Positions 9,219 to 63,732 of a stretch of DNA of 64,000 nt are shown here, one piece after another (the stretch's first letter is position 1; every line of letters begins with the position of its first letter). Source of the stretch: an uncultured Acidobacteriota bacterium (GTDB lineage: Bacteria; Acidobacteriota; Vicinamibacteria; Vicinamibacterales; UBA2999); contig CAVTMO010000017.1 in assembly GCA_963735875.1 (NCBI GenBank), forward strand, positions 548,040-612,039. The letters are read 5' to 3'. The notes under the pieces were generated by a model, which made no database searches, was not told where the DNA came from, and was given only the letters and a program-made list of their open reading frames with translations. The translations under genes were made by a program, and so were the position numbers.

Positions 9219-10036
9219 CGACACTCGCGCTGGCTGGCGTGCGTCTGTTGACGGTCGCGCTCAACGTGCCCGGACCGGCAGCCGTCGCACGGCTCGTCGG
9301 CCTCGGCGCCACGGCCGTCAAGATCGAGCCGCCAGCGGGCGACCCGCTGGCGACGCTGTGCCCGGCGTGGTTCGAGGCGCTGCACGCCGGCGTGACGCGC
9401 GAGACGCTGGACCTCAAGACCGGCGCCGGGCGGACGGGCCTCGATGGCCGGCTGGCTGCCGCGGACGTCGTGATCACCAGCCAGCGCCCCTCGACGCTCG
9501 CGCGTCTCGGCCTCGACCCGCCGCGGGTAGCGGCCATCGCCGCAGCGCTCCGGGTGGTGCGCATCGTCGGCGACACGGCCGACCCCGAGCGCCCCGGCCA
9601 CGATGTGACCTACCAGGCGGAAGCCGGCCTGCTGGGCGATCGGCTGCCGATCACCCTGCTGGCCGATCTCGTCGGCGCCGAGCGGGTGGTGGCTGCCGTG
9701 CTCGTGGCGCTGCGGTCGGCGCCCGGCACCGTAGTGGACGTGGGCCTGCGCAACGCGCTCGACGCGTTGACCGCGCCCATCGCCCACGGCCTGACCGCGT
9801 CCGGCGGGCCTCTGGGAGGCGGCCTGGCGGCGTACGGCGTCTACGCGACGCGCGACGGCCACGTCGCCGTCGGCGCGCTGGAGCCGAGCTTTCGCGGCCG
9901 GCTCTACGCCGCGCTGGAACTGCCGCTCGACGCGCCGCTCGCCGACGCGATGGCCGCGCGCACCACCGCCGAGTGGACCGCCTTCGCCCGCGAGCACGAC
10001 CTGCCGATCAGCAAGTGCGAAGGGGCTGGGGGCTAG
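9215..10036 (+). CDS. CoA-transferase family III (CaiB/BaiF-like) protein, short form
   Basis: GTG 9215 overlaps the SulP TGA (GTGA). LAGVRLLTVALNVPGPAAVARLVGLGATAVKIEPPAGDP resembles the family III N-terminal motif. At 273 aa it is shorter than typical members. The last codons GAGG-TAG lie inside repeat arm 10022-10054. Confidence 0.55.
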   Translation: MTTLALAGVRLLTVALNVPGPAAVARLVGLGATAVKIEPPAGDPLATLCPAWFEALHAGVTRETLDLKTGAGRTGLDGRLAAADVVITSQRPSTLARLGLDPPRVAAIAAALRVVRIVGDTADPERPGHDVTYQAEAGLLGDRLPITLLADLVGAERVVAAVLVALRSAPGTVVDVGLRNALDALTAPIAHGLTASGGPLGGGLAAYGVYATRDGHVAVGALEPSFRGRLYAALELPLDAPLADAMAARTTAEWTAFAREHDLPISKCEGAGG

Positions 10037-10174
10037 GGACTGGGGGCTAGGGCCGCAACGAAAACGGGCGCGAGGCCGAAGCCCCGCGCCCGCTGTGATA
10101 ACGCAGCATGCCGACGGAACAGCCAGACGAGGAGCTTTGTAGCCCAGCCCCAGCCCCGAGCCCCTAGTCCCTAG
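10022..10174. repeat. paired G-tract / C-tract arm element A (GGGGCT/GGGACT heptads) enclosing a terminator
   Basis: Left arm ggggctgggggctagggactgggggctagggcc (10022-10054). Right arm agcccagccccagccccgagcccctagtccctag (10141-10174). The arms are imperfect reverse complements separated by an 86-nt core. Both flanking convergent genes end with TAG inside the arms. Confidence 0.8.
10065..10092 (-). terminator. intrinsic terminator candidate for the minus-strand receptor gene
   Basis: cgggcgcgaggc / gccccgcgcccg stem (11 bp, one mismatch), loop cgaa. On the minus strand it is followed by TTTT (aaaa at 10061-10064). Confidence 0.5.
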
Positions 10175-13072
10175 AAGGTGACCTTGGCCGCCAGCTGTCC
10201 GACCCTCGGCTGGTAGGCGTTCAGCAGGTTCTGTCGCGGATCCCCGAAGCCGGCGTTGTTGATCACGCTCTGGTAGGCGCCGTAGTTCTTGTGGTTGGTC
10301 AAGTTGAATACTTCGGCAATCAAGCTGATGCGCATCCCGCCCGGCAGCGGGATGTCCTTCGACAGGCGCATGTCGACACGGTGCAGCGCGTCGCCCTGCA
10401 AGGCATCGCGCGGCACGAGGTCGCCGACGGCGAACGAGGTCGGCCCGTCGAACCGATCCTGCACGCCGGCCGGCACCGTCACCGGCGCGGTTACGAAGCG
10501 ATTGGTGCCCACGGCGCCGAACGGCGCCGCACTGAAGGTGGTGGCGTAGTAGTTGCCCGAGCCGAAGAAGTAGGCGCCGGCGATGTTGACGTCCCAGGGC
10601 AGGTGCCAGAGGGCGTTCATGCGCAGCGTGTGCCGCTGGAAGTCGGTCGAGCGCGCCCACTCGGCATCCGGGTCGAAGGGGTTGGTGCCCTCGAACTGGA
10701 AGTTGGTGGTGTTGTCGTTCATGTAGAGCATGTAGGTGTAGGTCAGCCCGGCCTGCCAGTTGTCGGCGTAACGCTTGGTGACCCCGCTCGAGATCGCGGC
10801 GTAGTCGGCCTCGCCGGTGGATTCGAGCCACTGGATCTTGCCGAACTTCGGGTCGGGGCGGCCGGCGGACGGATTCAGGTTGTAGCCCGTCAACGGATTG
10901 AAGAACAGGTTCGGATCACGCTGCCGGGCGAAGTTCTCGCCCTTCCAGTGGGTGAGATCGGCCTCGACGCCCAAGCGGGCGCCGAACTGGGTCTGGAAGC
11001 CGATCGTGCTCTGCCAGGTGTAGGGCATCTTGTAGTCGCTGGCGATGGCGCGAGGCGACTGGGCCGGCAGCGGCGCCCGGCCCGCCAGGATGTCGTCGGC
11101 GGTGACACCGCGGGTCGGGTCCTGGATGAAGCCGGGCCGGCCGTCGTTGGGGAACGAGTTGACCAGAATCCGCTCGCCGTTGAACGACTGGTGGCTGAAG
11201 GTCGTGTTCGAGTCGGGGATGCTGAAATAGAGCCCGCTGCCCCCGCGTATGACCGTGGTGCCCTGGCCGCCGATGTTCCAGGTGAAGCCGCCGCGCGGGG
11301 CGATGTTGTTGATGTCGCGCAGGTCGCCGGGGTAGAGCATCTCGCCGGAGCTCAGGGCGGTGTTCTCGGTGTAGCCGGCGCGGGGGTTGAAGGTCACCTC
11401 GGTGGTGATGTGCGGCGGGTCGAGGGCGCCCCAGTCGGCGTCCCAGCGCACGCCGCCGTTGATGGTGAACGAGTTGTTGATCTTCCAGGTGTCGCCCACC
11501 CACAGCGCCAGCGTCGGCCGCGGGATGTCGATGGTCCAGTCGCCGAAGTTCTGATCGAAGCGGGTCGCGATCGAGTCGAGGCCGGTCACGTCCCAGCGAG
11601 TGGGATCGTTCCAGGCGTCCACCGGGAAGCGGCGGAGGACGTCGGCCGGCGTGGCAGAAAAGATGAATTCGCCGCGCGACAGCAGCTCCCACGAGCCGGT
11701 GTCGTGCCAGCGCAGGAACTCGGCGCCGAACTTGAGGTCGTGCGCGCCACGGTTGGTGGTCAGGTCGTAGCGCAGGCTCCAGGTGTTCTGGTAGAACTCC
11801 TGCGGGTAGTTGCGGCGCTGGCCCACCGTGAGGCTGGGGAACACGTAGTTAGGGGTGTTGGCCAGGGCCGACACCGCCAGCTGGTTCTTCCAGTCGAAGT
11901 GGCTGTAGCCCAGCCGCACTTCCTGGATGGTCTTGTCGCTCAGCACGTTGGCCCAGGTGTTCGACACGTTGAACGCCTTGCGCGATCGATCGGCCACCTG
12001 CGACGGATGCTCGGTGCCTGACACCTGGGTGAACGGGTTACCCCAGTCCCAGTAAGAGACGCGCGAGGTGATGTGATCGCCCTGACGCACCTGCCAGTCA
12101 GCGCGGCCGAGGAAGCTGTTCTGCACCAGCTTGGTCGGGAACGACCACGTGGCGGTCGGCCCCAGCGCCGCCGACGCGGCGAGGATCGTGTTGGGCTCGT
12201 TCTCGCGCTCGTAGGACAGGAAGTAGTGGAGCTTGTCGCGGACGATCGGCCCCCCGATGGCGGCCCCCCACTGCTGGTTGGAGTACGGCAGCACGCGGTT
12301 GGCGATGAAGTCCTGCTCGTTGAGCTTGTCGTCGCGGAAGTAGCCGTAGACGCTGCCCGCCATGTCGTTGGTGCCCGAGCGCGAAATGGCCTGCACCTGG
12401 ATGCCGAGCGAGCGGCCCTGGGTGATGTCGAAGAGGTTGGTCACCACCTGGAACTCGGCGATCGCCTCACGGCTGAACCGGGGCTGGCCGAAGCCGCCGC
12501 CGGCCACCTGCTGGGTGATCTCCTGGCCGTCGAGATTGAGCTGGAAGGCGCGATCGCGCACGCCCGGGATTGGTGTCGACGGCGTTGGCGGTGATGCCCT
12601 TCACCTGCATGGCCAGCTCCATCCAGTTGCGGCCCTGCAGCGGCAGCTCCTCCATCTGGCGGCGGTCGACGTTGCCGGCCACCTGCGTCGAGCTGATGTC
12701 GACCAGTGGCGATTCGCCGGTGACGGTGAGCGTCTCGCTCAAACTGGCCACCTGCATCGCGAACGGCACCGAGCGGTTCTGGCCGACCAGCAGTTCCACT
12801 TCTGGCACGATCACGGTGGCGAAGCCCGAGAGCTCGGCCTGCACCTTGTAGCGGCCCGCCGGCACACCGCGCAGGCGATAGTCGCCGCGCTCGTCGCTGA
12901 CGCTGGTGAACACCCGGCCGGTCTCGAGCGACGTCGCGGTGACGGTGACGCCCGGCAGCGCGCCGCTCGTCGAATCGGCAATCGTGCCGAAGATGGATGC
13001 CTCCTGCGCGAACGCCGAGGCTGCGAACAGCACGATGGCGGCAGCAAAGACACCGATGGAACGCACGCGCAT
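10171..13072 (-). pseudogene. TonB-dependent receptor-like outer-membrane protein with N-terminal carboxypeptidase-regulatory-like domain, one frame break at about 12562
   Basis: ATG 13072. Signal peptide MRVRSIGVFAAAIVLFAASAFAQ, then GTIADSTSGALPGVTVTATSLETGRVF..DERGDYRLRGVPAGRYKV (CarboxypepD_reg). ...ANAVDTNPG continues as VRDRAFQLNLDGQEI... (ORF 10171..12561). C-terminal aromatic end ...AAKVTF. Confidence 0.8.
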
Positions 13073-23794: not shown

Positions 23795-23827
23795 CCCCGT
23801 TCCCTGTTCCCCGTTCCCTGTTCCCTA
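23795..23827 (-). repeat. G-tract array (GGGAACA/GGGGAAC units) filling the thiolase-hbd intercistronic gap
   Basis: Minus strand reads TAGGGAACAGGGAACGGGGAACAGGGAACGGGG. That is five G3-4 runs with 3-4 nt loops, a tandem 14-mer GGAACAGGGAACGG x2. It begins in the TAG stop of the thiolase and ends 8 nt before the hbd ATG. Confidence 0.8.
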
Positions 23828-26097: not shown

Positions 26098-26133
26098 CCT
26101 TCCCGGTCCCCGGTCGCCGGTCCCCGGTCCCCG
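26098..26133 (-). repeat. G-tract array (GGGGACC heptads) in the thiolase / TtuC-like intercistronic gap
   Basis: Minus strand reads CGGGGACCGGGGACCGGCGACCGGGGACCGGGAAGG. It lies between TGA 26155 and the GTG/ATG start at 26093/26090. Confidence 0.8.
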
Positions 26134-38774: not shown

Positions 38775-39808
38775 GCCAGCCGGGCCAGTCCGCCGGCGAA
38801 CGGCGGGTGCACGACGCCCCGATCGGTGACGATGGCGGTCACGTACCGGTGGGGCGTGACGTCGAAGGCGGGGTTGCAGACGGCCGCACCCTCCGGCACC
38901 AGCTGCAAGGATCCGAGGTGGGTGACTTCCACCGCCTTCCGCTCTTCGATCGGGATCCCCTCGCCCGTGGGCGTGGCCAGGTCGACGGTGGACCAGGGTG
39001 CCGCGACATAGAACGGAATGCCGTGCGCGTGGGCCAGAACCGCCACGCCGTAGGTGCCGATCTTGTTCGCGGTGTCGCCATTGGCGGCGATCCGATCGGC
39101 GCCGACGACCACGGCGTTGACCCGGCCGGCGCGCATCATCGCCGCCGACATGCTGTCGGTGATGACGGTCGTGGCGATGCCGTCCTTGACGAGCTCCCAG
39201 GCCGTCAGCCGGGAGCCCTGCAGGAAAGGCCGCGTCTCGTCGGCGAGGACGGTGACCGACTTCCCCGCCTCGACGGCACTGCGGATCACCCCGAGCGCGG
39301 TGCCGTAACCGGCGGTGGCCAGGGCGCCGGCGTTGCAATGCGTGAGCACCCGCGCGTCGTCGGGCAGCAGCGCGGCGCCGAACCGGCCGATCGCCCGGCA
39401 GCTGGCGACGTCCTCGTCGTGGATGCGATCGGCCTCCCGGCCGAGCCGTGCGGTCAGCTCGGAGACGCTCTCCCCGGCCTGGGCCCCGGCGGCGAAGGCC
39501 TGCTTCATCCGCTCGATCGCCCAGAAGAGATTGACCGCCGTCGGCCGGGTGGCGGCCAGGACGTCGGCGAGGCGCTGGAACTCGGTGACGAACTGCCGGG
39601 TGCCCGTGGCCTTGCTGCGCCGCGCGCCCAGGGCCAGCCCCATCGCCGCCGCCACGCCGATTGCCGGCGCGCCGCGGATCACCATCGCCGTGATGGCCTT
39701 GGCCACGTCGAGCCCCGACCGGCAGCGTACGTAGACCTCGCGCCCGGGCAGCTTGCGCTGATCGATCATGACGATGTCGTCGCCGTCCCAGGCGATCGTG
39801 GGGAGCAT
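38771..39808 (-). CDS. mtnA: S-methyl-5-thioribose-1-phosphate isomerase
   Basis: [16 protein letters not shown]...[18 protein letters not shown]...[11 protein letters not shown]...HCNAGALAT...[20 protein letters not shown]...[18 protein letters not shown]. Confidence 0.9.
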
Positions 39809-39818
39809 GGGTCACATT

Positions 39819-39972
39819 CTAGGGGCTGGGGGCTGGGGACTAGGGCTTGCCAATATCCCGCTTCGCATCGCGGCATTCGCGGCGATGCACAAGCCCTGGC
39901 TCTTGATCACGTCACTCGACAGCTTGACGGCCGCATGCCCCAGTCCCCAGCCCCTAGCCCCCAGTCCCCAGG
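39819..39972. repeat. paired G-tract / C-tract arm element B between cdd and mtnA
   Basis: Left arm ctaggggctgggggctggggactagggc (39819-39846). Right arm gccccagtccccagcccctagcccccagtccccagg (39937-39972). 90-nt unrelated core contains a gcatcgc...gcgatgc hairpin. The cdd C-terminus ILGTGG-TAG is encoded by the right arm. The left arm ends 10 nt from the mtnA ATG. Confidence 0.8.
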
Positions 39973-54590: not shown

Positions 54591-57384
54591 ATGTTCAGAC
54601 TGTCTACGCTCTGCCTGACGGCCGCGCTCACGGCCGCCCTGGCCATGCCGGCGTTCGCGCAGCCGGCGCAGACCGGCACCATTGCCGGCGTCGTGCAGGA
54701 CGCCAGCGGCGGCGTGCTGCCCGGCGTCACCGTGACCATCACCAGCCAGGAACGCGGCTTCGTCCGCTCGGCCATCTCCGACGAGCAGGGCCGTTTCGTC
54801 TTCGGCGCGGTCTCGATCGGCAACTACACGGTGGAGGCGACGCTCGCGGGCTTCGCCCCCATGCGCCTCACCGACAACCTGGTCGAGACCGAGAAGACCA
54901 CGACCGTGTCAATTCCCATGCGCGTGGGCGGGCTCACCGACACCGTCACGGTCACCGGTGAGACGCCAATCGTCGACCTGACCAACGTGACGGCCAACAC
55001 CCGCCTCCGCCGGGAAGAGTTCGAGCGCCTGCCGGTCGGCCGGAGCTATCAGGCCCTGGTCGAGGCGTCGCCCGGGGTCGTCGGCGGGACGGCCTTGACC
55101 GGCAACTCCAACGTCAACGCCCTCGGCGCCCCGAACAACGCCAACCTCTACGTCATGGATTCGGTCGACACGACCGATCCGACCACCGGCACGTTCGGCG
55201 CCAACCTCAACTTCGAGGCGATCCAGGAAGTGTCGGTCTCGACCTCGGCGGTGTCGGTCGAGTACGGCCGCGGCCAGGGGGCGATCATCAACGTCATCAC
55301 CAAGTCGGGCACCAACCGGTTCGAGGGCTCGGCCAAGTACATCGCCATCAACGACCAGTGGGACGAGCAGAACTCGACCGAGAGCGAGACCACCGGTCTG
55401 TCGCTGGCGCGCGTGAAGTTCGACAAGGTCAACCCGGCCTACAGCTTCACCCTGGGCGGGCCGATCTGGCGCGACCGTGCCTGGTTCTTCGGCGCCTACG
55501 AGTACGCGACCAACACCACCCCGCAGCGCCAGACCCCGGGACCGATTCCCGAGGACTACCAGCAGTCCACCGAGAACAACTTCATGAACGTCCGCGGCAC
55601 GCTGCAGATCGCCGAAGGCCACCAGGCCTGGGTGAAGTACTTCCGCTCGCCCACCGACGGCTTCATCATCGACTACTGGGGCGCGACCACGCCGGCCGGC
55701 GAGCTCGAGGCGCTGACCGCGCAGAACCAGTCGAGCGACTCGTGGGCGGCGCAGTGGACCGGCGTCTTCCGCGGCAATCTGGCGGTGGAGGCGGCGTTCG
55801 GCACCTACTCCTCGCTCATCGACGTGACCACCTACGAGGCGGGACGCATCGGCTCGAACGCGCCGGTGCAGGCGCAAGCCGACAACCGTTTCTACAACGG
55901 CGCGAGCTTCGACGGCTACGTCAATCGTCCCCGCCAGCAGTTCAACGTCGCCGGCACGTACTTCTTCAACATGGGCTCGCGCAGCCACAACGTCAAGGCC
56001 GGCTTCGACTACCAGACCGTGGATTCGGGGTCGCTCTTCAACTACCCCACCAGCCAGTATTTCGTGGCCGAGTCGTTCAACCAGGCGGCCGGCACGTTCG
56101 TGCCGCTCTTCCGCCGCGACTACGAGTCGGGGCCTTCGACCTCGAAGGGCAAGAACTACGCGTTCTACCTGCGCGACAAGTTCGACCTGACCAGCCGGCT
56201 CTTCGTCGAGGCCGGCGTCCGGTTCGAGCACCAGACCGGGACCAGCGACCTGGGCGCCGACACGGTCGACACCACCGAGCTGGCGCCGCGAATCGCCGCC
56301 AGCTGGGACGTGTCGGGCGACGGCAAGAGCCTCATCACCGGCAGCTTCGGCCGCTTCTACACCGGCATCATCCAGAGCTTCTCCGACGGCTTCGCCGGCG
56401 TGCCGCAGCAGCAGAACTACGACAACTTCGCCTGGAACGGCTCGAGCTACGTCTTCCAGAACAGCGTCCGGGTCGGCGGCTCCACGTTCCAGCCGAATCC
56501 CGAGCTCGACCCGTCGTACCTCGACGAGTGGACCATCGGCGCGCAGCGGCAGTTCGGCCGCAGCATGGCCGCGAGTGTCCGCTACATCGCCCGTGAATGG
56601 AACGACCTCATCGACGACATCCGCACCATCAACCCGGACCTGTCGGTCAACCGGGTCGTCGACAACTACGACGCCGCCGAGCGGCAGTACCGCGGCGTCC
56701 AGGGCACCTTCGAGAAGCGGTTCGCGAGCAACTGGAACCTGGGCAGCCAGCTACACCTACTCCAAGACCGAGGGCAACCACTTCGACGCCACGTTCACGC
56801 CGCTGGGTGACTACATCGACGCCCAGTGCCGCACCACCCTCGACGCGACCATCGGCACGGCCGGCGTGATCTCGTGCAACGAGGTCCAGAACGGCGCCAA
56901 CAAGTACGGCCGGCCGATCTACGACCGGCCGCACAACTTCAAGCTGAACGGCGCCTACGTGCGGCCGATCGGTCCGTTCAACCTGGCGGTCGGCGCGCTG
57001 GTCGAATCGGTGTCCAAGCGCCGCTACGAGAAGGTGCGCACGGTCAACGTGCTCACTCCCGGGGCGCTGACCAACTTCGGGCCGACGGCGACCTACTTCT
57101 ACAACGAGCGCGGCGAAGACGCGCTCGAAGGGATGCAGTGGTACATCGACAACTCGATCGAGTTCATCTGGCGGGCTCCGGGCAGCACCCAGATCGGGAT
57201 GAAGGGCGAGGTCTTCAACCTGACCAACCGCGAGGAGAAGATCATCTCGAACAACACCGCGTTCTGCGGCGCGACCGCCAACCAGGCGTGCACCGACGCG
57301 GTGAACAACTACGGCAAGGCCACGGCGCGCGGCTCGTTCCAGACGCCGCGGCAGTTCCGGATCTCGGCCATCTTCCGCTTCTAG
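54591..57384 (+). pseudogene. TonB-dependent receptor-like outer-membrane protein with carboxypeptidase-regulatory-like domain, one frame break at about 56745
   Basis: Signal peptide MFRLSTLCLTAALTAALAMPAFAQ. GTIAGVVQDASGGVLPGVTVTITSQERGF...GRFVFGAVSIGNYTV. ...FEKRFASNWNLG continues as ASYTYSKTEGNHF... (ORF 56575..57384), ending QFRISAIFRF-TAG. Confidence 0.8.
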
Positions 57385-57522
57385 GGGCTGGGGACTGGGG
57401 GCTGGGGACTAGGGCTCGTCACGAGCTGCCGGTCTCTACGCGACCCGAACGTACAAAGGGCCGGGCGAATCGCCCGGCCCTTTGTGTTCGTGACCCGCCC
57501 CAGTCACCCAGCCCCTAGCCCC
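57382..57522. repeat. paired G-tract / C-tract arm element C enclosing a bidirectional terminator
   Basis: Left arm taggggctggggactgggggctggggactagggc (57382-57415), which starts with the TAG stop of the receptor gene. Right arm gccccagtcacccagcccctagcccc (57497-57522). 81-nt unrelated core. Confidence 0.8.
57455..57483. terminator. bidirectional rho-independent terminator between convergent receptor and rng genes
   Basis: aaa-gggccgggcg-aat-cgcccggccc-ttt. Perfect 10-bp stem flanked by an A-run and a T-run. Confidence 0.7.
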
Positions 57523-57598
57523 GCAGTTCGACGTGATGTCGACACGCGCTTGAGGCCGCGCAGCGGCTTACCCCCCAATTGACATCACGTCGAACTGC
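57523..57598 (-). other. 18-bp perfect inverted repeat spanning the rng stop codon region
   Basis: gcagttcgacgtgatgtc (57523-57540) is the exact reverse complement of gacatcacgtcgaactgc (57581-57598). The latter encodes the last residues ...EQFDVM of rng. 40-nt loop contains the TAA stop. Confidence 0.85.
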
Positions 57599-59200
57599 TC
57601 GTGGTGCAGCTGCACGTCGGGCTTGACGATCACGTCCTTGCCGAGGGTCTGCTTGAGGTCACGCAGCACGCCGCGCTCCTCGTCCTTGAGCGCGCGGGCG
57701 ATGTCGGGGTTGACCCGCAGCAGCACGCCCAGGCCGTCGAGGTCGGGGCCGAGCTTCTTCACCTCGGTCAGGATCTCGTAGCACACGGTGGAGCTCGACT
57801 TGATCGTGCCGGTGCCCGAGCAATACGGGCACGGCTCGGTGAGCGTGCGCTCGAGGCTCTGCTTGACGCGCTTGCGGGTGACGATGACCAGGCCGAAGTC
57901 CGAGACCTGCAGCGCCTTGGAGGGTGAGCGGTCGCGCCGCAGCTCGTGCTCGACCGCCTGGAACACTTTCTGGCGGTTCTTCTTCTCCTCCATGTCGATG
58001 AAGTCGAGCACGATGATGCCGCCCAGGTCGCGCAGCCGGATCTGGCGGACGATCTCCTTCGCCGCCTCGAGGTTGGTCTTGATGATCGTGTCCTCGAGCC
58101 GGCCGGCGGTCTTCTTGCCGACGTAGCGCCCGGTGTTGACGTCGATGGCGACCAGCGCCTCGGTCTGGTTGATGACGATCGAGCCGCCCGACTTGAGCCA
58201 GACCTTGCTCTTCAGCGCCTTGTCGAGCTCCGACTGCACGCCGTACTCCTCGAAGATCGGAAACGGCTTGTCGTGCAGCTTCACCCGGGCGGACATCCCG
58301 GGCATGATCCGGTCGAGCAGCTCGACGATGCGGGCGTGCTCGCGCGTGTCGTCGATGCGGATGGCCGTGTAGTCGTCGGTCAGCAGGTCGCGCAGGAGCT
58401 TGGCCACCAGGCTCGCCTCGCGGAAGACGACCGCCGGCGCCCGGCTCGACTCCGACTTCTGCCGCATCTCGGTCCAGACGCGGTGGAAGTACTGGAGGTC
58501 GGAGACGATGTCCTCCTTGGGTCGGCTCTCGGCGGCCGTGCGGATGATCACGCCGCCGCCGAACTGGTGCTGGCCGCGGAACTCCTTGACGATGCCGCGC
58601 AGCCGGTTGCGCTCCTCACGCGTCGAGATCTTGCGCGACACCCCGACGTGGTCGACGGTGGGCATGAAGACCAGAAAGCGGCCGGGCATCGTGACGTGCG
58701 AGGTGAGGCGCGCGCCCTTGGTGCCGAGCGGCTCCTTGGCCACCTGCACGATGATGTCCTGCCCGTCCTTGACCAGCTCCTCGATCTTGGGTTCCGGGCC
58801 CTTGTCGCGGTCGCCGCGATCGCGGCCGCGTCCGCCGCGGCCGCGGCGCTCGGCGCCATTGGCGGCCGGCTCGGCCGCCACTTCGGCGGCGCCGCTGCCC
58901 ACCGCCGGCGGCGGCCGGCGCCGGTGCCTCGTCGTCCTCGTCGTCGCCGCTCAACCGCTCGAACTCCTCCATCGTGTTGACGACGTCGGAGACGTAGAGG
59001 AACCCGTCGCGCTCGAGGCCGAGGTCGACAAACGCCGACTGCATGCCAGGCAGCACCTTGGAGACCCGGCCCTTGTAGACGTTGCCGACCACGCCTCGAT
59101 TGCGTTCGCGCTCGACGAAGACCTCGGCGAGCAGGTCGTCCTCGAGGATGGCCACGCGGGTCTCGTGGCCGTTGGTCGCGATGATCATTTCCTTGGTCAT
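57568..59200 (-). pseudogene. rng: ribonuclease G / E family (Rne/Rng) endoribonuclease, one frame break at about 58900
   Basis: N-terminal S1 domain GNVYKGRVSKVLPGMQSAFVDLG (ORF 58616..59200). ...DDEDDEAPAPAAAGG continues as GSGAAEVAAEPA...IVQVAKEPLGTKGARLT...VAIDVNTG...GGIIVLDFIDM...CPYCSGTG (ORF 57568..58902). Confidence 0.85.
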
Positions 59201-63705: not shown

Positions 63706-63732
63706 GGGACCGGGGACCGGGGACCGGGGGCC
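63706..63732 (+). repeat. G-tract array (GGGGACC heptads) in the mreB-mreC gap, on the strand opposite to transcription
   Basis: GGGACC GGGGACC GGGGACC GGGGGCC on the plus strand, 5 nt from the mreB TGA (63737). Same heptad as 26098-26133 but inverted relative to the genes. Confidence 0.8.

Follow-up and report, generated by a model that had tools for sequence, protein, structure and literature searches.

Inverted pairs of heptanucleotide arrays at gene edges in an uncultured Vicinamibacterales bacterium: anatomy, turnover and a possible role as intergenic stem-loops

Published heptamer repeats and three elements of the window

The closest described relatives of the elements reported here are the G-rich heptamer repeats of Rehm et al. 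(2015, PLoS One 10:e0144275, PMC4692102), tandem arrays of the type GGGAATC/(GGGANTN)n with 183–186 arrays per genome in two Xanthomonas genomes and with the unit GGGGA(C/T)T in Nostoc PCC 7120. These arrays favour four units, are intergenic in about 90% of cases and lie beside stop codons on the coding strand; 70 and 75 convergent array pairs, which could form stem-loops or cruciforms, were counted per Xanthomonas genome, and inverted pairs are few in Nostoc. In vitro the repeats form K+-dependent quadruplexes and i-motifs and most arrays are transcribed. That study identified no function for them, and our literature search found no later paper giving heptamer repeats one. In the window, by which we mean the whole analysed stretch of 64 kb (70% G+C) from an uncultured Vicinamibacterales bacterium of the Acidobacteriota (GCA_963735875.1, contig CAVTMO010000017.1), we found three elements built from such arrays, at 10021–10174, 39819–39971 and 57381–57522, whose paired arms stay complementary to each other even in relatives that carry other units.

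Across prokaryotes, no other intergenic tandem repeats are as abundant as heptamers, to which neither a cause nor a function has been assigned (Mori et al. 2019, NAR 47:e8, PMC6344855), and a further example is given by the TAACTGA repeats of Beggiatoaceae (PMC4679880); both surveys concern direct repeats, and inverted pairing, covariation and polarity are outside their subject. For the STRR heptamers, hairpins between hupS and hupL are cited in PMC2670836. STRR repeats are hairpin-forming, intergenic and transcribed, with proposed roles in transcript stability or translational coupling. Our own scan of representative genomes with GGGRCTNGGGRCTNGGGRCTNGGG gave at least 120 loci (L001–L120), and the matches listed, to which all scan counts below refer, include many Nostoc, Calothrix and Anabaena loci with an STRR-like pattern. 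The cyanobacterial STRR1 heptamer is CCCCAGT, the reverse complement of ACTGGGG. STRR repeats share their unit with the window arms and are likewise intergenic and hairpin-forming, but they differ in that their arrays are often long and single and belong to low-GC genomes. In Enterobacteria and Pseudomonas, REP/BIME sequences and REPIN doublets are intergenic as well, lie at the 3′ ends of genes with convergent or co-directional neighbours and form inverted pairs that fold into stable stem-loops, with hundreds of copies per genome and lineage-specific sequences; their roles include protection of mRNA 3′ ends, termination and effects on translation when they are located near a stop codon. REP/BIME thus provide the best functional analogy for the heptad-arm elements. 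The structures are distinct, as a REP is an imperfect palindrome of about 20–40 nt and a REPIN is a doublet with a conserved spacer mobilised by RAYT, whereas the three elements are made of tandem heptads instead of palindromic units and have unrelated cores instead of a conserved spacer, with no sign of mobilisation. An earlier note on this DNA, made from its letters alone, had concluded that the element is neither a miniature inverted-repeat transposable element (MITE) nor a classical REP, and the unrelated cores, the non-palindromic heptads and the absence of visible target-site duplications at the ends agree with it.

Each element consists of a 5′ arm of NGGG(G/A)CT heptads, a core of 77–89 nt and a complementary C-rich 3′ arm, and the step of seven nucleotides is strict. 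The layout of the first copy, with its 86-nt core, and its recurrence at two further places had been described in the earlier note and were both borne out. The scan for heptad arrays covered the whole window, with mixed-unit arms being detected by regular expressions and Tandem Repeats Finder (TRF), and yielded six NGGG(G/A)CT arrays of 3–5 units each, where 0.004 GGG(G/A)CT arrays are expected from 500 dinucleotide shuffles of the window; the frequency of the arms is thus far above a composition null. Arrays with at least four G-tracts were found seven times compared to 0.45 expected from the same kind of shuffling. All six arms have at least four G-tracts, which matches the quadruplex sequence pattern that the note had pointed out, and reach a magnitude of 2.1–2.5 in the sequence-based G4Hunter score. 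Since three genes of the window are frameshifted, indel errors are likely and the exact lengths of the G-runs have to be read cautiously.

Complementarity between the arms amounts to 82–88% in copies 1 and 2 and to 71–88% in copy 3. In predicted RNA folds the arms pair around the core (z = −5.7, −7.1 and −8.7 for copies 1–3), consistent with the stem of about 30 bp that had been suggested for them. The cores of the three copies show a mutual similarity no better than that of shuffled sequence, as the note had stated, and Rfam 15 gave no match at gathering score over the whole window. With their tandem heptads carrying a G3-4 tract, about four units, intergenic position and convergent pairing, the elements resemble the repeats of Rehm et al.: all six window arrays have the tandem 7-nt unit with a G3-4 tract, the placement of all six arms fits, and all three elements of the window are convergent stem-loop pairs. 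Differences are the host lineage, Vicinamibacterales within the Acidobacteriota, and the unit NGGGGCT/NGGGACT, which overlaps with the Nostoc unit GGGGACT; GGGGACT and GGGACT units match the Nostoc type and (GGGANTN), but the commoner GGGGCT does not. The elements are therefore a Vicinamibacterales member, with the unit GGGGCT/GGGACT, of the published intergenic G-rich heptamer class, and the view that they form an undescribed family has to be given up, as convergent pairs of such heptamers at the ends of open reading frames (ORFs) have been reported (PMC4692102) and the STRR heptamers were known even earlier.

Copy 1 is flanked by two convergent genes, one for a CoA-transferase III (+) and one for an outer-membrane beta-barrel protein (−); flanking genes were identified from Pfam assignments. 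Its 5′ arm (10021–10054, plus strand, AGGGGCTGGGGGCTAGGGACTGGGGGCTAGGGCC, 4–5 NGGG(G/A)CT heptads) encodes the tail E-G-A-G-G of the CoA-transferase and its TAG stop (10034–10036). After the core of 86 nt (10055–10140) follows the 3′ arm (10141–10174), G-rich on the minus strand, whose outermost unit contains the end of the barrel gene, TTC-TAG (stop 10171–10173). Copy 2 separates cdd and mtnA, which are both encoded on the minus strand and are thus co-directional. One of its arms (39936–39971, G-rich on minus) encodes the end of cytidine deaminase, I-L-G-T-G-G-TAG (stop 39956–39954), and is followed in gene direction by a core of 89 nt (39847–39935) and the second arm (39819–39846, G-rich on plus and therefore C-rich in the sense of both genes), which leaves 11 nt to the start codon of mtnA (39808–39806, minus strand). 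Copy 3 is flanked by a TonB-type barrel gene (+) and the RNase G gene (−). The first unit of its 5′ arm (57381–57416, plus) holds the barrel-gene stop (R-F-TAG, 57382–57384), the core (57417–57493) has 77 nt, and the 3′ arm (57494–57522, G-rich on minus) is shorter and more degenerate and lies at a distance of 45 nt from the RNase G stop (57568–57570, minus). Both barrel proteins have a Phe at their C-terminus, and the reading frames of their genes close precisely at the first heptad unit; the two cytosolic enzymes have array-encoded C-terminal tails that vary between genomes. The claim that the element contains both stop codons of two convergent genes therefore applies to copy 1, but neither to the co-directional copy 2 nor to the RNase G side of copy 3.

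Hairpins inside the cores are of different kinds. The GC hairpin of copy 1 (10065–10092) is followed by the T-run TTTTCGTT on the minus strand only, so that it looks like a terminator of the minus-strand barrel gene; the hairpin which the earlier note had called an ordinary terminator is thus present, but with its T-run on one strand and with a negative terminator scan. The perfect 16-bp hairpin in the copy 3 core (57453–57485, ACAAAGGGCCGGGCGA / TCGCCCGGCCCTTTGT) looks like a bidirectional terminator, and the small hairpin in the copy 2 core (39865–39888) has no terminator-like T-run. Simple terminator and promoter scans around the three copies called none, and the inner hairpins were read by eye. 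The outer stems are not directly followed by the U-tract of an intrinsic terminator and continue instead as AAGGUGAC, GGAUCGUU and GCAGUUCG. Only two structures, the hairpins inside the cores of copy 1 and copy 3, have a terminator-like appearance, and the proposal of a terminator clamp, with no U-tract behind the outer stem, stays at the level of a suggestion.

At copy 2, a −10-like TAGAAT (39821–39816, minus strand) overlaps the arm next to mtnA. A −10-like hexamer (TAGAAT, TATGAT, TACAAT, TATCAT or TAAGAT) precedes the ATG of mtnA by 6–8 nt in almost every orthologue (L121–L154), and no Shine-Dalgarno sequence is visible before mtnA in these orthologues or in the window (39806–39821, minus strand). 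Taken together this suggests a leaderless mtnA mRNA with a putative promoter abutting the C-arm, and the copy 2 element looks as if it fills the gap from the cdd stop to this apparent promoter.

Turnover of units and persistence of the paired layout

The best relatives of the MtnA, RNase G and CoA-transferase encoded in the window are found in metagenome-assembled genomes of Vicinamibacterales (Acidobacteriota). Arms are kept at all three orthologous loci while the cores drift or alter their length, in line with the structured family of conserved arms and free core that had been proposed. The copy 2 orthologues L121 and L122 (MtnA 90% identical) have both arms, with cores of unrelated sequence that measure 63 nt in L121 and about 25 nt in L122 compared to 89 nt in the window; in L123 (MtnA 82% identical) the core is absent, and the cdd–mtnA spacer of 9 nt shows a degenerate arm trace only. 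For copy 1, both arms and the core hairpin are present in L206 and the hairpin is also kept in L209, while L207 and L208 lack the G arm. In L204, the copy 3 orthologue with an RNase G identity of 99%, each of the two arms consists of GCGGCT-type heptads (GGCTAGGGGCTAGCGGCTCGCGGCTAG ... CTAGCCGCGAGCCGCCTGAGCCGCAGCCG), with the G3 tract gone from most units of both. Even so the arms pair without a mismatch for 14 bp or more, with a predicted fold of z = −7.7, and the core stem is conserved. In L205 (RNase G 97% identical; region 11639–11760) the barrel gene is absent and the RNase G-side arm alone is left; in this lone arm GGGRCT and GCGGCT units are mixed.

Beside copy 3, the window also contains a perfect 18-bp inverted repeat (57523–57540 / 57581–57598), one arm of which is formed by the final coding bases of the RNase G gene, GCAGTTCGACGTGATGTC. 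Its stem encloses the RNase G stop (predicted RNA fold z = −4.7), and the repeat is weaker in L204 and reduced, as read by eye, to 10 nt in L205 (TGTCGATTGG / CCAATCGACA). It may be a regulatory hairpin of the 3′ end or the trace of an inverted duplication.

Between very close strains the arms are the variable part. The window and L209 (CoA-transferase 99% identical) differ by about one indel in the core but at five or more positions in the arms, one lost unit included, and an indel right before the arm in L209 turns the CoA-transferase tail EGAGG* into QRGWGLGTGG*. CoA-transferase tails in close genomes (window 10019–10036; L206, L209) read EGAGG*, QRGWGLGTGG* and LGTRD*, and those of cytidine deaminase (window 39954–39971; L121, L122) read ILGTGG*, LLGAGD* and LLGTGTGDSGARAGA*. 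The G-arm arrays thus rewrite protein ends and stop positions. Even the array type can be exchanged, as the mreB–mreC spacer contains (CCCCGGT)n in the window and in L204 but (GCGGCTA)4 in L205. Over short times the arms are hypermutable, but over long times they renew themselves, and the cores are the reverse.

At a larger distance the units themselves are replaced. When the spacer that precedes mtnA was compared in 70 metagenomic orthologues, 19 had period-7 arrays, with units that vary by lineage and with a recurrent inverted-pair arrangement: GGGTTCA...TGAACCC in L141, the AT-rich TTGCTGA...TCAGCAA in L131 (fold z = −5.8), GTTCTAG...CTAGAAC in L132, GAAGCCA...TGGCTTC in L164 and AAGGATG...CATCCTT in L178. 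Comparing the left unit with the reverse complement of the right one gave a match of 6.5/7 within 12 spacers from at least nine unit families (unit consensus pairs hand-picked from TRF output and direct reading) and of 3.6/7 between loci. L126, L129, L137 and L141 each contain 3–4 unit types within a few kb, and since neighbouring spacers use different units the match between left and right belongs to the pair and not to the genome. This also rules out, as a general rule, one house unit per genome that is read by one factor. Other periods occur in the same spacer, as L124 (~1950–2075) carries an inverted pair of arrays with a 17-nt period and L133 (~1760–1835) three copies of a 24-nt unit between small hairpins. 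In the fetched loci, which are partly seeded by the search pattern, we counted 366 period-7 arrays and 29–61 for each of the periods 6, 8 and 9.

The property that is conserved across lineages is the heptad-periodic complementary arms at the outer edges of the spacer, against the ORFs. Quadruplex potential, which the earlier note had pointed out, is real in this lineage but is an optional trait of the current unit rather than a conserved principle, because of the GCGGCT arms in L204 and the AT-rich heptad pairs in other lineages.

Polarity, gene ends and candidate roles

The matches listed in the representative-genome scan belong to Cyanobacteria, Acidobacteriota, Gemmatimonadota, Planctomycetota, Chloroflexota, Actinomycetota and Proteobacteria. 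In a census of adjacent arms 10–300 bp apart (L001–L120), 17 inverted pairs had the G-rich arm first, one had the C-rich arm first and ten were direct, corresponding to a bias for the G-first polarity with a binomial p of 1.4e-4 (17:1); several of these pairs, for example L098, enclose a textbook terminator. Using ORFs of at least 120 codons that end between −30 nt and the end of the arm, an ORF end was found on the G-rich strand in 56/129 arms (43%) and on the C-rich strand in 14/129 (11%), compared to 5.7% for random positions, which confirms a preference for gene ends among the matches listed. In 20/56 of these cases the stop codon abuts or lies within the arm, at +5, +12 or +19, where it is the TAG of the GCTAGGG junction, and in-arm stop codons are therefore a general property of the class. 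An enrichment of stop codons in the heptads as such was also considered, but a hand tally of about 55–60% on either strand was near the roughly hand-estimated chance rate and the idea was dropped. The ORF-based classification of the pair context is too noisy in high-GC loci for quantitative use.

Complementarity that survives a full turnover of the unit suggests that both arms interact physically as a hairpin. The data show the anatomy of the elements, their non-random occurrence, the covariation of the arms, their polarity, their position at gene ends and their evolutionary dynamics. We infer that this hairpin forms in vivo and has an effect there, and from the analysis as a whole a REP-like function as intergenic stem-loop seems most likely. 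The complete reading, a hairpin-coupled inverted pair of heptad microsatellites with a REP/BIME-like role at gene boundaries, is one that we hold with moderate confidence. According to it, inverted heptanucleotide arrays, which bracket the spacer from ORF edge to ORF edge with the G-rich arm first on either strand, would arise and be continually remodelled through 7-nt slippage. Hairpin formation would couple the arms so that they stay reverse complements whatever the unit becomes, either through hairpin-templated correction, through selection for pairing, or both; the pairing might take place in RNA and be selected, or in single-stranded DNA, where template switching would correct the quasi-palindrome. 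Such correction is a known mutational route, and the end of the RNase G coding sequence, with its perfect inverted copy of 18 nt beside copy 3, indicates that inverted copying does occur in this spacer. The outcome would be a stem of about 28–35 bp enclosing the spacer, together with an inner terminator hairpin where one is present, and this stem-loop, in read-through RNA and/or single-stranded DNA, would insulate neighbouring transcription units, either as a barrier at the 3′ end or as a fallback site of termination or processing. The G-first polarity may have been selected because template strands rich in G are unfavourable, or because nascent RNA rich in C is accessible to Rho.

Several points weigh against this hairpin-coupled reading. 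No canonical terminator was called at the three copies and no U-tract follows the outer stem, and if the inner terminator works the C-arm would stay untranscribed, so that the long RNA stem would form in read-through only. The arms are dispensable, as seen from the 9-nt spacer of L123, the missing G arm of L207 and L208 and the lone arm of L205. Hypervariability and the replacement of the array at one locus fit neutral microsatellites equally well, the G-first polarity is not explained by a hairpin alone, and ten of the arm pairs among the matches listed are direct and not inverted. Moreover, the unit pairs behind the covariation were not chosen blind.

A serious alternative, although we think it rather improbable, is that the arrays are functionless, hypermutable heptanucleotide microsatellites which expand until they meet coding sequence, with pairs arising from quasi-palindrome correction by template switching and with no other filter on orientation than a selective disadvantage of template strands rich in G or of nascent RNA rich in C. 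It would explain directly why arms change faster than cores between 99%-identical strains, why one array type is swapped for another between mreB and mreC, why arrays run into the ends of ORFs, which then encode variable junk C-termini, and why arms are missing in some relatives with no visible consequence. The abundance of heptamers among prokaryotic intergenic tandem repeats, to which no function is assigned (PMC6344855), fits as well, and the inverted copy of the RNase G end shows that inverted duplication happens. The strong polarity and the bias for gene ends do not follow from neutrality itself, to which the orientation filter has to be added; the layout has also persisted at three loci past the point where a neutral spacer is scrambled and recurs in at least six phyla. 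Self-renewing arrays can however persist without selection, so that none of these points is decisive against neutrality.

A pure quadruplex role at gene ends, with pairs being a by-product of two facing gene ends, appears unlikely. It is favoured by the G4Hunter scores and tract numbers of the arms and, for related units, by the preference for four units and the K+-dependent quadruplexes in vitro (PMC4692102). The excess of arms after stops on the G-rich strand (43% vs 11%) and the retention of the RNase G-side arm in L205 without a facing gene point in the same direction, and with the G-first polarity an incoming polymerase would meet the G-rich sequence on its non-template strand. In L204, by contrast, most G3 tracts are lost in both arms while position and complementarity are retained, and heptad pairs without G-tracts occupy orthologous spacers. 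A unit that is shared within the spacer across at least nine unit families is unexpected for independent gene-end arrays, the genes around copy 2 are not convergent, and the mreB–mreC (GGGGACC)n array is C-rich in the sense strand. Rehm et al. treat the quadruplex as the property that defines their repeats, whereas relatives of the window keep the paired layout with units unable to form one.

As a more speculative extension of the hairpin-coupled reading, which we regard as tentative at best, inverted heptad arrays could be a general class of sequence-independent, self-extending intergenic hairpins that act as G-first boundary elements in many phyla. A specific molecular ruler would set the 7-nt step, for which the footprint of a polymerase or of slippage, a factor that reads heptads and loops missed by mismatch repair are candidates. 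Hairpin-templated copying would keep both arms of these evolvable stems in step. If true, this would provide mechanism and function for the ‘prime-number periodicity’ of prokaryotic intergenic repeats.

It is very doubtful that the arms offer multivalent binding to a protein or ring which recognises motifs spaced by 7 nt on RNA or single-stranded DNA and tunes termination or translation at gene boundaries, such as Rho (YC dinucleotides on the C-arm) or S1-, Csp- or CsrA-type proteins. The strict periodicity, the recurrence of units within a genome (six GGGRCT arrays in the window, GCGGCT at two L205 loci) and proposals of protein binding for the TAACTGA repeats and the Nostoc heptamers would suit such a reader, but no candidate protein was identified, pairing of the arms would conceal the sites, and the 3–4 unit types within a few kb in L126, L129, L137 and L141 make a single sequence-specific reader unlikely. 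A mobile element of the MITE or REPIN type, with the arms as terminal inverted repeats, shares with these elements the inverted ends, the intergenic position and several copies per genome, but has next to no standing and is effectively refuted by unrelated cores within the genome, ends without visible target-site duplications, arms that stay at orthologous positions instead of coming and going as complete elements, and arm lengths that shift in 7-nt steps.

Further arrays of the window and implications

Three further heptad arrays of the window are unpaired and located in co-directional spacers. A GGGAACR array (23795–23826, minus) begins at the stop codon of a thiolase gene in a minus-strand operon, and a GGGGACC array (26102–26133, minus) precedes a downstream start in the same operon; the sequence between the two is ordinary coding sequence. 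The third (63706–63730, plus) is the (GGGGACC)n array of the mreB–mreC spacer, which reads (CCCCGGT)n on the other strand. Split reading frames were observed for a SulP transporter (~8332), the TonB-type barrel protein (~56725–56774) and RNase G (~58902–58946). All three are intact in close relatives according to tblastn, and the splits are probably indel errors of long-read assembly, but these could be pseudogenes instead.

In summary, the locus and its orthologues represent a natural experiment that separates the hairpin layout from quadruplex capacity, two ideas that are commonly mixed up. Keeping the paired layout at gene edges despite units that are unable to form quadruplexes points to stem-loop or boundary functions, or to hairpin-templated mutagenesis, and not to quadruplexes alone. 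For the annotation of such genomes it is of practical importance that the arms displace stop codons, give proteins variable junk tails at the C-terminus and are prone to indels in long-read assemblies, by which gene calling may be misled. Furthermore, arms of the GGGGCT and GCGGCT type are natural variant pairs suited to a comparison in reporter constructs. The covariation of the arms across lineages, together with natural variants lacking quadruplex capacity, makes the question of what these heptamers do more directly testable.

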